Shown here piece after piece: positions 21,518 to 24,447 of a stretch of DNA of 64,000 bases. Numbering within the stretch: the first letter of the stretch is position 1; each line of letters begins with the position of its first letter. The notes under the pieces are model-generated. The model searched no databases, was not told the DNA's origin, and saw only the letters and a list, made by a program, of their open reading frames with translations. This DNA is from a virus: IMG/VR virus record IMGVR_UViG_3300034782_000053; one strand, given 5' to 3'. The position numbers and the translations under genes were made by a program.

Positions 21518-22348
21518 ATGAAGTTTAAATCCGCTCGGTATCCCGGCTGGTTTCGTAGAACGTCGCTTCCTGATCGTTACCGAGGACCCACTCCTCCCAA
21601 GCAATCTGCCAGTGTCATCGTTCCATTTGGAGGTGGACAGGCGTACCTGAGTCGACTGGCCAACTGTCTGCGTTCGGTGCGCTGGCAGGATTACGTGAAC
21701 CACGGAAACGTCGAGCTGATCCTTGTTTACTTGAATCGGGGTGACTCTTCTGAGGACGAAAGGCAGCAGCTCGCCTCGCTGGTGAGAGAGCACAACGTTC
21801 GTCTTGTCGAGGCGAACAAGACCTTCGGGCATTTTCCGCTGTGCTTGGCGAGGAACATGGGCGCCCGAGCAGCAAAAAACGATGCGCTCGTCTTCATCGA
21901 TGCCGATACGGTGTTAGATCCGGAGTTTCTCGCGCGTTCTCTGCGCAGGCCGGGAAAACTCGTCACCTGTTGGTTCTCCTACCTCCGGAAGAATCACAGT
22001 CCTGTGGATAAGAAGGGGGGAGTGCGGGAGCTGGTCCCTCAGGGGAGAATCAGGCGCTATGCTTATGGAGGTGGAATCGTTGCGCCAAGGTCGGTTATTG
22101 AAGAGATTCGCGGCTTTGATGAGGTCTACGACAGGGCGTGGGGAGCTGACGACAACGACATCGTCGACCGGCTCATACAACACGGCCTTGAATGGCACAA
22201 CCTCACCGTCAAGGAAAACATCGTCAACCTGCACCAGTTCCATCCGAGCTTCATCAACGAGAAGTCACCAGGGACGGTGGCTAACCGCAAACGTTATTAT
22301 CAACTGCAAACGGTGGTTCGAAACGAGAAGGGATGGGGTGAGCCGTGA
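21518..22348 (+). CDS. family 2 glycosyltransferase
   Basis: SVIVPFGGGQ (GT-A N-terminal strand), LVFIDADTVLDPEF (DxD region). Confidence 0.65.
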   Translation: MKFKSARYPGWFRRTSLPDRYRGPTPPKQSASVIVPFGGGQAYLSRLANCLRSVRWQDYVNHGNVELILVYLNRGDSSEDERQQLASLVREHNVRLVEANKTFGHFPLCLARNMGARAAKNDALVFIDADTVLDPEFLARSLRRPGKLVTCWFSYLRKNHSPVDKKGGVRELVPQGRIRRYAYGGGIVAPRSVIEEIRGFDEVYDRAWGADDNDIVDRLIQHGLEWHNLTVKENIVNLHQFHPSFINEKSPGTVANRKRYYQLQTVVRNEKGWGEP

Positions 22349-22887
22349 ACAAGGTTGTGGGGGTGGGTTGGGCAAAAACGGGAACAACGACACTGGGTGC
22401 ATGTTGTAAGATTCTTGGATATCGTCACTATGGACACCAACTGAGCCTGCTTGGAAGGCCTGAACAGGCGATGTCGATCGCTCGCCGTTTTGATAGTTTC
22501 GATGATTGGCCGTGGGCTATCTATTACAAGGAGCTGGATATGCGCTTCCCTGGAAGCAAATTCATCCTGACGATTCGTGATAGCGCCCGGTGGCTCAGGA
22601 GCTATCACAATGCAGTGTCCAAGCAGCCCGCTGCAAGATTGAGAGATCGGGAAAAGGCTCGGAGGGAGATTTACGGGTTCACCTACGCTGAAGCCACAGA
22701 CGAGAAGCTCATCGCGCGTTTTGAGAGACACAACGCTGAGGTGAAGAAGTACTTCTCTGATCGTCCTGGGGACTTACTCGTTGTGAACTGGGAGGAAGGT
22801 GACGGCTGGGACCAGGTCTGTTCGTTCTTGGGGGAGCCGGTCCCGAAAAAGCCTTTCCCGCATGCAAATAGAGGGGTCTATAGCTGA
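22345..22887 (+). CDS. sulfotransferase (PAPS-dependent, P-loop 5'-PSB motif)
   Basis: VGWAKTGTTTLG (5'-PSB loop), LTIRDSARWLRS (3'-PB-like), C-terminal LLVVNWEEGDGWDQVCSFLGEPVP typical of sulfotransferase family; overlaps GT2 stop by 4 nt. Confidence 0.65.
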   Translation: MNKVVGVGWAKTGTTTLGACCKILGYRHYGHQLSLLGRPEQAMSIARRFDSFDDWPWAIYYKELDMRFPGSKFILTIRDSARWLRSYHNAVSKQPAARLRDREKARREIYGFTYAEATDEKLIARFERHNAEVKKYFSDRPGDLLVVNWEEGDGWDQVCSFLGEPVPKKPFPHANRGVYS

Positions 22888-23765
22888 CCCTTGAGCGCCT
22901 TCAGCAGATCTTCAGCTTCAGCAATGTTCTGAGCCCAAAGAGCCCAATTGGTAGTGCCCTTGGCGCTGCGGCTTAGTTGGTTGATGTGAGAAAGGTTTGG
23001 GCGCTTGCCGAAAGCGTCGCTGCTGTAGCCGAGCAGGTTGAGCGAAAGCATCGTCCTGACGCATTTCTCGCACTTACCACAGTTGTAGGCGTTCCCCTGC
23101 CAGCAGACACGTAAGAGGTTTCGCACGTAAGGTAGTTCAGCAACGACCCTGAGCTTTTCTGGTCGTGTGATAGGAGCGTCGTGGACAAATTCAAGTGTCT
23201 CTGTGCTCCATAGCGGGTCGATGTGCGGGTGAGTCGAGCACTCCTGGGGGAAGGTCATCGTGTTCGAGGCAGGGATGTAGATCTTCTTGTGAGTTTCTTC
23301 CTTCGCGAGCCCGATAGAGGCCAGCGCAGGCCCGTGGCCGTACTTGTACCACGCGACGTGCTTGTCCAGTGTCTCCCGAAGATTGGAGTGGACGATAACT
23401 GGGGACTTTCCGAAATGGTCTGCGACCAGCCGGATCTTTTTGGTGACCTCATCCAAAACATTCTTTGTTATCCGACGCTCAAATCCGATGACGTAAATGA
23501 GGTCGTCGATTTCGTCCAAGTGGGTGATCAGTGTATAGAAGGAGTCGACGCCAAGGGTGAAGAATGTCGCTACGCGCTCGCCGCCCTGCTCGTGAACTAC
23601 AGGGGTAAACCGGGACAGATCAACGTTGCTTCGAAGACCCCAGGTTCTGTAGGTATCGATAGCCCTCCTTGCTCCTTTGAGAAACTTAGCGCTGACCTCA
23701 CCTGTTGCTTGAGGTAGCTTCCCCGTGAGAAGGTTGGCCGCGATCATGCTCTCTAAATGTGACAT
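22878..23765 (-). CDS. QueC/ExsB-like PP-loop superfamily protein (possible sugar amidotransferase), degenerate PP-loop
   Basis: C-terminal zinc motif VCWQGNAYNCGKCEKCVRTMLSLNLLGY resembles QueC SCYxG..GCGxCxSCxLR; N-terminal TLGVDS in place of SGGxDS. Confidence 0.4.
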   Translation of the reverse strand: MSHLESMIAANLLTGKLPQATGEVSAKFLKGARRAIDTYRTWGLRSNVDLSRFTPVVHEQGGERVATFFTLGVDSFYTLITHLDEIDDLIYVIGFERRITKNVLDEVTKKIRLVADHFGKSPVIVHSNLRETLDKHVAWYKYGHGPALASIGLAKEETHKKIYIPASNTMTFPQECSTHPHIDPLWSTETLEFVHDAPITRPEKLRVVAELPYVRNLLRVCWQGNAYNCGKCEKCVRTMLSLNLLGYSSDAFGKRPNLSHINQLSRSAKGTTNWALWAQNIAEAEDLLKALKGQL

Positions 23766-24447
23766 CGAACTGGCCCTTCATACGTGAGAGATAAATTGCC
23801 TTGTTTTTGAAGTAGTTGCCCCCGTAGAAGACAACCCGTTTCCCCAGCATGCACGCGACAATTGCGACGTGCAAGCGGTCAGTGTGAACCTCGCGGACTT
23901 TGTTGATGGCTTCGATAAAGGGGCTCGTGTTGTGGTAGGTCTCGCCCCACACGCTGATGTCGCGATTTCCCTTGGGGATCTTGAAGTGTCTGGCGCTCTC
24001 CTTGTCGGTCCTCATGAAGTGGCCGACGCCATCGCCCTCTTGCGGCTTGAGAGCGGGTGCGAGGTGGAATGCCATGTCTTGGTGATAGGTGGCGTCAGGA
24101 CAGTAGAGAAGGCTGTCACGGTTGTCGCGGGCAAAGAAGTGGATTTTTGGGATATTGAACAGAGGGCTGCGGACGGCGTAGGTCGACGGAAGCACAATAA
24201 CCTGCTTGGCCTTGGGCACCGAGGCGTTAACGAAGTGGCTATGGTTCCAGTTAGCGCACCAAGCGCCGCCACCGCCGAAGATAAAGGTGCCCGTCGCCTC
24301 CTTTGGCGGTCTGGTGATCTCCTCGTAGACGAGCCCGATGTCTTTGAAAAATCGAATTGTTCCCTGGCGAATGAGGGCGTCCCCAAGATTGCCAGGGTTC
24401 GCCATGTAGAGGCGAGGCTGGGGGCTTTTCAGGAGTAGGTCTCTCAT
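23698..24447 (-). CDS. polysaccharide pyruvyl transferase family protein
   Basis: N-terminal GNLGDALI and C-terminal HTDRLHVAIVACMLGKRVVF match PS_pyruv_trans motifs; internal ATG 24447 overlaps upstream stop (ATGA). Confidence 0.6.
   Translation of the reverse strand: MRDLLLKSPQPRLYMANPGNLGDALIRQGTIRFFKDIGLVYEEITRPPKEATGTFIFGGGGAWCANWNHSHFVNASVPKAKQVIVLPSTYAVRSPLFNIPKIHFFARDNRDSLLYCPDATYHQDMAFHLAPALKPQEGDGVGHFMRTDKESARHFKIPKGNRDISVWGETYHNTSPFIEAINKVREVHTDRLHVAIVACMLGKRVVFYGGNYFKNKAIYLSRMKGQFDVTFREHDRGQPSHGEATSSNR

Follow-up and report, generated by a model that had tools for sequence, protein, structure and literature searches.

The DNA analysed here is a 64,000-nucleotide stretch of virus record IMGVR_UViG_3300034782_000053 from IMG/VR, referred to below as the window, and its positions 21518-24447 hold four tightly packed open reading frames (ORFs). 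The ORF listing confirmed that these form a real four-gene cassette, encoding a predicted glycosyltransferase (GT), a predicted sulfotransferase (ST), a predicted QueC-fold PP-loop protein (QCL) and a predicted pyruvyltransferase (PvT). Our reading, to which we assign a probability of about 0.6, is that the four genes form a glycan-tailoring module active in infection, which would place a capped glycan on the host envelope and so alter the host surface. The evidence comes from family assignments, from conservation of the cassette in diverged virus-like lineages, and from the genes that accompany relatives of ST and QCL in cellular genomes.

Organization of the cassette

GT (21518..22348, plus strand, 276 aa) was identified by Pfam and motifs as a GT-A fold family-2 glycosyltransferase. 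ST (22345..22887, plus strand, 180 aa) was assigned by Pfam and PDB matches to the Sulfotransfer_4 (S. mansoni-type) family, whose donor is 3'-phosphoadenosine 5'-phosphosulfate (PAPS). On the minus strand, QCL (22878..23765, 295 aa) was recognised by fold comparison as a putative QueC-fold, PP-loop ATP-pyrophosphatase-like protein with a Cys4 zinc ribbon, and PvT (23698..24447, 249 aa) was predicted from Pfam and the PDB entry of WbbZ to be a WbbZ-like polysaccharide pyruvyltransferase dependent on phosphoenolpyruvate (PEP). The GTG start of ST overlaps the stop codon of GT (GTGA), the QCL gene is convergent with the ST gene with a 10 bp overlap, and the 3' end of PvT overlaps the start of QCL by 68 bp, while the ATG of PvT abuts the stop codon of a 96-aa ORF upstream. 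The four contiguous genes reported in the first-pass annotation were therefore present, and the Pfam matches of GT, ST and PvT exceeded the curated cut-offs.

The automatic gene caller had shortened three of the cassette genes, and we adopted the longer starts on the basis of N-terminal conservation between lineages. For PvT, the start at 24447 was backed by N-terminal conservation with three other lineages (L005, L006 and L104) and also agreed with the WbbZ alignment. The long N-terminus of GT was likewise kept among its homologues, which measured 276-282 aa.

GT, ST and PvT match known enzyme families

We examined the family membership of each protein with Pfam profiles, PDB sequences and alignments of homologues. 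GT matched Glycos_transf_2 (E 2.2e-11, 44.4 bits against a cut-off of 23.3), in agreement with the original GT2 call, and also Glyco_transf_7C (E 1.8e-6, 28 bits against 23). Among eight homologues, six of them viral and two cellular, the DxD motif D128-A-D130 and the stretch W208-G209-x-x-D212-x-D214 were invariant, as were R112, N113, D201 and E202. GT carries a WGADDND motif like that of beta4GalT and chondroitin synthase, and a weak PDB match to chondroitin synthase was found (6e-4). The profile, the DxD metal/nucleotide-sugar motif and the C-terminal acidic catalytic motif together place GT in family GT2 (GT-A).

ST matched Sulfotransfer_4 (PF17784 / IPR040632) with an E-value of 5.6e-33 and 115 bits against a cut-off of 22.8, its residues 3-176 covering profile positions 1-211 of 215. 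The P-loop VGWAKTGTTTLG quoted in the first-pass annotation was found in the protein, and the PAPS-type call held. PDB matches were obtained to 9kf1 (1e-18), to SgdX2 (8y9p, 3e-14) and to SmSULT, the schistosome oxamniquine sulfotransferase (4mua, 2.5e-7). Across 37 homologues the 5'-phosphosulfate loop G-W-A-K-T-G-T-T-T was preserved, with G8, W9 and T12-T14 invariant and K11 near-invariant; D54-x-P56-W57 (D54-W-P-W), the 3'-phosphate arginine R78 and S86 were also invariant or nearly so. The P-loop and the R78/S86 positions align with the same motifs of 9kf1 and 8y9p, and the invariant D54 aligns with the D-L-P aspartate of the schistosome enzymes. In SmSULT, D91 has been named as catalytic (PMC7167500), and D54 may be its counterpart. 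SgdX2 and the schistosome enzymes are longer than the viral protein (about 250-260 aa vs 180 aa), and the alignment showed two features of the cellular members that are missing from the viral ones, an insertion of 5 residues and a tail at the C-terminus. These results indicate that ST is a member of the Sulfotransfer_4 family with a predicted PAPS-dependent activity. No APS-kinase or ATP-sulfurylase domain was detected among the window ORFs scanned, so ST presumably depends on PAPS made by the host.

The same element also encodes a protein with an FGE-sulfatase (formylglycine-generating-enzyme-like) domain, at 4325-5374 on the plus strand (E 4.5e-32).

PvT matched PS_pyruv_trans (PF04230; E 4.7e-8, 33.7 bits against a cut-off of 25.3) and aligned with the WbbZ structure 6x1l over query residues 3-223, almost its full length (E 7.7e-25), which upheld the earlier pyruvyl transferase call. 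Its conserved residues are N20, G22, D23, R107, D124, R146, D148, E150, T189, R191 and H193; in 14 viral and cellular sequences N20, G22, D23 and H193 were invariant, and R146, D148, T189 and R191 were conserved in at least 90%. The motifs NPGNLGD, RTDKE and HTDRLH, which are proposed to bind PEP and the acceptor, were kept, and by analogy their residues may correspond to D106, R217 and R337 of Pvg1p (from PMC10629545). For WbbZ, experiments have proven the PEP-dependent transfer of a terminal pyruvate, which caps the Klebsiella O1 antigen (PMC10629545). PvT is, by sequence, a WbbZ-like enzyme with a predicted pyruvyltransferase activity.

QCL is predicted to be a QueC-fold protein of a large family

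The Pfam check proposed earlier for every ORF supported the other three proteins and returned for QCL only a sub-threshold match to DUF6395. The homologues found by sequence search fell into two clades: a viral one at 55-68% identity, with lengths of about 290-300 aa, and a cellular one at 30-42% identity, whose members measure about 380-430 aa and have an additional domain of about 100 aa at the N-terminus. All homologues were annotated as hypothetical, and none had a precomputed Pfam domain. The family comprises 4,940 clusters at 50% identity (E<=1e-30) and has no Pfam model.

Two motifs were invariant in the alignment: a PP-loop-like FF[ST]xG[VI]DS, for which many cellular members have SGGVDS and the viral ones TLGVDS, and C-x7-C-x2-C-x2-C. 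A profile search against PDB sequences gave nothing meaningful, leaving fold comparison as the informative approach. An AlphaFold2 (AF2) model built on the family alignment reached a predicted local distance difference test score (pLDDT) of 95.6, and a Foldseek search of viral models with it retrieved phage QueC proteins at template modelling (TM) scores of about 0.45-0.55. QueC and Cap9 were the closest structural relatives, at 14-15% identity, and the protein combines the PP-loop fold with a Cys4 zinc site. On the strength of this model, QCL is best described as a QueC-fold PP-loop protein.

Two more specific identities were considered and rejected. As a true QueC, the protein scored 13.5 bits against a cut-off of 150.3 (TIGR00364), and the C-terminal zinc motif was the sole matching part; of the QueC/ExsB-like call, the fold and the zinc motif therefore stood and orthology to QueC did not. 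None of the deazaguanine-pathway genes sought (FolE/GTP-cyclohydrolase, QueD, QueE, TGT/DpdA) was confirmed among the window ORFs scanned. As for the N-acetyl sugar amidotransferases WbpG and PseA, the kinship suggested in the first-pass annotation held at the level of the broad PP-loop superfamily, and neither sequence nor close structural comparison placed QCL within that group. The acetamidino role once suggested for it was not supported, and QCL is not an enzyme of the WbpG type.

Cellular relatives of QCL and ST are associated with pyruvyltransferases

To describe the genomic context of QCL, we collected 80 unique cellular loci from GTDB species genomes. A PvT-family gene lay within 10 kb in 26 of them and was directly adjacent in 16. 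A Pfam scan of 144 immediate neighbours ranked PS_pyruv_trans first (18) and Glycos_transf_2 second (9). In an Armatimonadota metagenome-assembled genome (MAG), the order PvT-GT2-QCL was found within a rhamnose/glycosyltransferase cluster.

Fusions pointed in the same direction, with at least six proteins joining QCL to a pyruvyltransferase or a glycosyltransferase. QCL and PS_pyruv_trans share a single ORF in L070, P0246 and P0248; a protein on a 101-kb IMG/VR contig (L098) joins a GT32-like DXD glycosyltransferase, QCL and PS_pyruv_trans; and QCL is fused to GT2 in P0247 and to GT1 in P0345. Other partners were a TTL/ATP-grasp ligase with an Asp/Arg hydroxylase, FemAB/GNAT, a SAM methyltransferase and a beta-lactamase-like domain, and tandem duplications also occurred. 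The whole fusion-type set consists of L070, L081, L094, L098, L118, L127 and L128 together with P0246-P0248, P0300, P0345, P0351 and P0377. Adjacency and fusion together support a functional coupling of QCL to pyruvyltransferases and glycosyltransferases.

Besides the 80 loci, a 128.6-kb metagenome contig of viral or cellular origin, Ga0315276_10000008, carries at 9794-11727 (L108) a QCL homologue of 40% identity followed directly by a pyruvyltransferase.

We then looked at cellular homologues of ST. Both of those examined (2/2), each 50% identical to the viral protein, adjoin PS_pyruv_trans in polysaccharide loci. The Kdo-capsule-type locus of Halochromatium roseum contains two Sulfotransfer_4 genes, two PS_pyruv_trans genes, a Sulfotransfer_3 gene, KdsA/KdsB-type genes, Capsule_synth and an ABC transporter, and that of Allomesorhizobium camelthorni has a Wzx-type flippase, then PS_pyruv_trans, then ST. 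PvT is the element common to both pairings, ST with PvT and QCL with PvT. The suggestion in the first-pass annotation that the genes act on a glycan gained support from these cellular contexts.

The cassette is conserved among diverged virus-like lineages

The same gene order, GT and ST followed by QCL and PvT on the opposite strand, was found in at least seven diverged virus-like lineages (the window with L002-4, L005, L006-9, L100, L104, L105 and L106/107), with protein identities of 55-68% and ST identities of 60-68%. L002 is a near-identical 113-kb JGI contig and is accompanied by fragments, L005 lies on a 290-kb contig, L006 is a contig of 100.7 kb, and L100 lies on a contig binned as a Planctomycetota MAG. 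L104-107 are short metagenome contigs, and a metagenome scan gave just these four from the viral clade. In L006 (10001-11061) and L007-L009, two tandem Sulfotransfer_4 genes replace the single ST, with a Tad6-domain gene directly upstream. These identities, the preserved lengths and the retained motifs indicate that all four genes are under selection.

We also searched known phages. Megablast of positions 17000-32000 gave no match in 50,697 GenBank phages, and neither did tblastn of ST, QCL, PvT (at E<=1e-3) and two large window proteins against the same set. Pattern scans of IMG/VR gave six distant QCL relatives and two ST relatives, and the cassette in none. The rarity of phage sulfotransferases asserted at the outset is thus confirmed for this type, and the four-enzyme combination is new, being without a match in the GenBank phages and nearly absent from IMG/VR.

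Proposed function of the cassette

The family assignments, retained motifs, cassette conservation and coupling of QCL are established above; from them we infer an order of steps, a chemistry for QCL, the use of host PAPS and the identity of the acceptor. The four cassette proteins are all small, and none showed a membrane or export domain, so the enzymes are probably cytoplasmic. GT would add a hexose-type residue from a nucleotide sugar to an acceptor glycan, using its DxD motif and a divalent metal. PvT would then use PEP to form a cyclic pyruvate ketal on a sugar, by analogy with WbbZ probably the terminal residue or one close to the end of the chain, and ST would sulfate a hydroxyl of the same glycan with host-made PAPS as the donor.

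In QueC, NAD synthetase, asparagine synthetase and TilS, as is typical of PP-loop enzymes, the oxygen of a carboxylate or carbonyl group is adenylated before a nitrogen or sulfur nucleophile attacks. QCL may similarly perform an ATP-dependent, adenylation-type step coupled to pyruvylation, and our best guess is that it activates a carboxylate, which could be the one of the pyruvate ketal, so that amidation or ligation can follow. We favour activation and amidation (or ligation) of an acid group because pyruvylation creates a new carboxylate and because some QCL relatives are fused to amide-forming ligases. A more far-reaching proposal, which we put forward tentatively and regard as doubtful at present, is that QCL and PvT carry out an unrecognised two-step glycan modification, in which the ketal carboxylate, or an acid group next to it, would be adenylated and converted to an amide or ligated derivative, a chemistry that was not met with in the papers searched. 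Such a modification would be widespread in bacteria and archaea, and would have been captured by one lineage of large phages and joined to ST, giving an epitope without cellular counterpart.

The product of the pathway would be a sulfated, pyruvylated, negatively charged capped glycan. The most likely acceptor would be a lipid-linked intermediate of a host envelope polysaccharide at the cytoplasmic face; we rank it first because of the cellular contexts and because of the precedent of a functional phage-borne wbbYZ, and place virus proteins, including the MVP-like (major vault protein-like) product encoded upstream of GT, second. The outcome would be receptor masking or superinfection exclusion, in the manner of phage seroconversion genes.

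Evidence against modification of the host surface and alternative explanations

Several observations weigh against this interpretation. With respect to QCL, the PP-loop of the viral proteins reads T-L-G-V-D-S and not S-G-G-x-D-S, a variation that at position 2 also occurs in cellular members; of the three cellular QCL loci inspected at the start, two lacked glycan genes in their vicinity, and two thirds of the 80 loci had no PvT within 10 kb. QCL was accompanied by an ST in no cellular locus, so the four-gene set is without a cellular model and the combination is therefore specific to the viral clade. A literature search found no published amidated pyruvate ketal. Most classic surface-conversion genes are found on temperate phages, and no sign of an integrase or of lysogeny was seen in the 64-kb window of a genome of about 113-124 kb. 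The cassette lies among replication-type and early-type genes and close to an MVP-like gene in three lineages, a setting in which a viral target is possible.

The same biochemistry could serve that other target, the cassette decorating virion proteins or the MVP-like (vault-like) shell with a sulfated, pyruvylated glycan. In the window with L002, in L005 and in L104, an MVP-like gene precedes the cassette by no more than a few kb, and the four enzymes look soluble and cytoplasmic, which would place them where virus proteins are made. Glycosylation of virions by virus-encoded enzymes is known in mycobacteriophages and giant viruses. Megavirinae carry predicted sulfotransferases (PMC11625862). 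However, no MVP-like gene was found within 10 kb of the cassette in L006 and L100, three unrelated genes intervene between MVP and GT in L005, and the cassette adjoins no recognisable structural gene. The cellular relatives of ST, PvT and QCL with an informative context were all in polysaccharide loci (capsule, Wzx, rhamnose) rather than protein-glycosylation loci, and we consider a viral protein target unlikely. A target outside glycans altogether, either a sulfated or activated metabolite like those of SgdX2 and SmSULT or a DNA base modified by QueC-type 7-deazaguanine chemistry and glycosylation, appears very improbable. The characterised Sulfotransfer_4 members do all act on small molecules (oxamniquine and the secondary metabolite sungeidine) and not on glycans, which also counts against our preferred reading. 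QueC and Cap9 are the nearest structures to QCL, QueC for DNA modification is frequent in phages (BFVD matches), and a radical SAM protein at 6927-7826 has a weak QueE-like PHROG match. Against such a target stand the score of QCL far below the QueC cut-off and the window ORFs scanned, which contained no TGT/DpdA, QueD or GTP-cyclohydrolase domain. The fusions of the QCL family to pyruvyltransferases and glycosyltransferases, the position of the nearest cellular ST genes beside PS_pyruv_trans in polysaccharide loci, and the likeness of PvT to WbbZ, a saccharide enzyme, all point back to a glycan.

A different objection concerns the origin of the DNA, which might be a host-derived or other mobile-element island; the four genes would then be a polysaccharide-modification operon of the usual bacterial kind. 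Neither the window nor the 10 kb upstream nor the related loci yielded a recognisable capsid, portal or terminase gene; PHROG and Pfam scans of the large ORFs of the window and L006 found no capsid, portal or tail protein and one non-significant terminase match (E 0.026). The assignment of L100 to a Planctomycetota MAG, the 290-kb length of the L005 contig and the lack of nucleotide or protein matches in GenBank phages would also suit a non-viral source. By contrast, the window has 14 tRNA genes interleaved with ORFs, an endolysin-type amidase with a peptidoglycan-binding domain, a PolB-type exonuclease, an N6/N4 DNA methylase and a single-stranded DNA-binding protein (SSB), and its relatives carry HNH nucleases, RusA/RuvC-type resolvases, T4_Y16D and Tad6. 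More than 80% of the ORFs had no Pfam or PHROG match, short genes are packed in strand blocks, near-identical contigs of about 113-124 kb came from several samples, and no housekeeping genes were seen. These indirect hallmarks indicate that the DNA is likely from a large, very divergent phage, and we hold a non-viral origin to be highly unlikely. On balance, modification of a host envelope glycan by a viral cassette remains our preferred reading.

Upstream signals and other features of the window

The cassette is preceded on the plus strand by the MVP-like gene (18350-21304, 984 aa), which matched MVP_shoulder (6e-15), Vault_3 and Vault_4. Between its stop at 21304 and GT, a predicted terminator-like hairpin was found by consensus match at 21435..21466 on the plus strand (12-bp stem, 8 G-C pairs, T-rich tail), in accordance with the MVP terminator noted earlier. 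It is followed by a predicted sigma-70-like promoter match at 21482..21510 on the plus strand (ATGACA-17-TATCAT). The -10 element TATCAT ends 7 nt ahead of the GT start codon, and the same arrangement of TATCAT, 7 nt and ATG occurs in L100 (about 9160-9176). No Shine-Dalgarno sequence was found upstream of the GT start in the window. Because the -10-like element stands so close to the start codon and a Shine-Dalgarno sequence is lacking there, the GT transcript may be leaderless.

Upstream of the window, a vWA_Ro60 protein (L099 2736-4322; about 7 kb before the window start) and a SpoU methylase were found, and no structural genes. One virus-like genome thus holds two eukaryote-style domains associated with ribonucleoproteins, MVP-like and vWA_Ro60, which is unusual.

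Thirteen of the tRNA genes (Cys, 3 Arg, 2 Met, Pro and 6 Leu) lie at 165-6816 on the plus strand, interleaved with ORFs at the left end, and one lies at 15925-16001 on the minus strand. One tRNA has TTA as its anticodon, which would pair with the stop codon UAA. Stop-codon recoding as the cause of the missing structural genes was rejected, as TAA ends 16 of the 60 window ORFs. Beside the tRNA array, the region 6927-8999 (plus strand) consists of three neighbouring genes, which encode a radical SAM domain (2.1e-22), a sub-threshold DUF2284-like metal-binding protein and a HAD_SAK_2 'Swiss Army Knife' RNA-repair HAD domain (1.9e-30).

Other genes had been linked to the cassette in the first-pass annotation. 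The proposed second GT-A-like protein (29922-30779, minus strand, 285 aa) proved to be a real conserved gene whose product has many conserved Cys, Pro and Trp residues. A search of 5.8 billion clusters gave only two homologues, of which one was identical and the other equal in length with 58% identity. The assignment of the protein as a glycosyltransferase was not supported: it had no Pfam or PHROG match, its AF2 model reached a pLDDT of 40, and hhalign against a GT family aligned the DxD stretch alone (E 0.054, probability 1%). Of the two suggested methyltransferases, the one at 44685-45767 was recognised as Methyltransf_24 (2.9e-11), whereas that at 60094-60681 stayed below threshold (0.0019).

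Comparison with known systems

Changes that phages make to surface glycans decide infection partners, and pyruvate and sulfate both add charge and make or destroy epitopes for receptors and lectins. If our reading is true, a virus with its own GT, PvT and ST and an ATP-using partner would widen the known glycan chemistry of viruses. Apart from the virus, the coupling of QCL to pyruvyltransferases gives a first clue to the function of a large QueC-fold family that no Pfam model covers, and is the most novel lead of this study. To our knowledge, sulfation by phages has so far been annotated and never tested. Sulfotransfer_3 has been annotated in cyanophages and OM43 phages (PMC10580990), and bacterial O-polysaccharides that are both sulfated and pyruvylated exist, for example in Cobetia pacifica according to work cited in PMC6801904.

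In structure, QCL stands nearest to QueC and Cap9, and it differs in its genomic partners, which are pyruvyltransferases and glycosyltransferases; no deazaguanine-pathway partners were found. WbpG and PseA share the broad PP-loop (adenine nucleotide alpha-hydrolase) superfamily with QCL and have their roles in glycan pathways. SmSULT and SgdX2 share with the viral ST the Pfam family and the PAPS-binding motifs, with the DxP aspartate aligned, whereas their substrates are small molecules and the genomic context of the viral ST is glycan-related. The Halochromatium and Allomesorhizobium loci resemble the cassette in that STs about 50% identical to the viral one lie directly beside pyruvyltransferases, in loci for polysaccharide export or assembly. 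They differ in being cellular and in having an ABC transporter or a Wzx flippase, and no QCL gene was seen there.

The cassette resembles seroconversion-type modules in consisting of glycan enzymes without a flippase or ABC transporter of their own, its viral origin being likely as argued above. The closest parallel is the wbbY-wbbZ pair (Klebsiella pneumoniae O1; Caudovirales BK049963.1), in which a GT and a PEP-dependent pyruvyltransferase cap a glycan, and the phage-borne pair is functional (PMC10629545). WbbY is a large dual-domain GT polymerase, whereas the cassette has a 276-aa GT2, and the wbbYZ locus has neither a sulfotransferase nor a QueC-fold protein. A phage-borne pair of GT and pyruvyltransferase was therefore already known, and what is new is the four-enzyme set and the coupling of QCL to a pyruvyltransferase.

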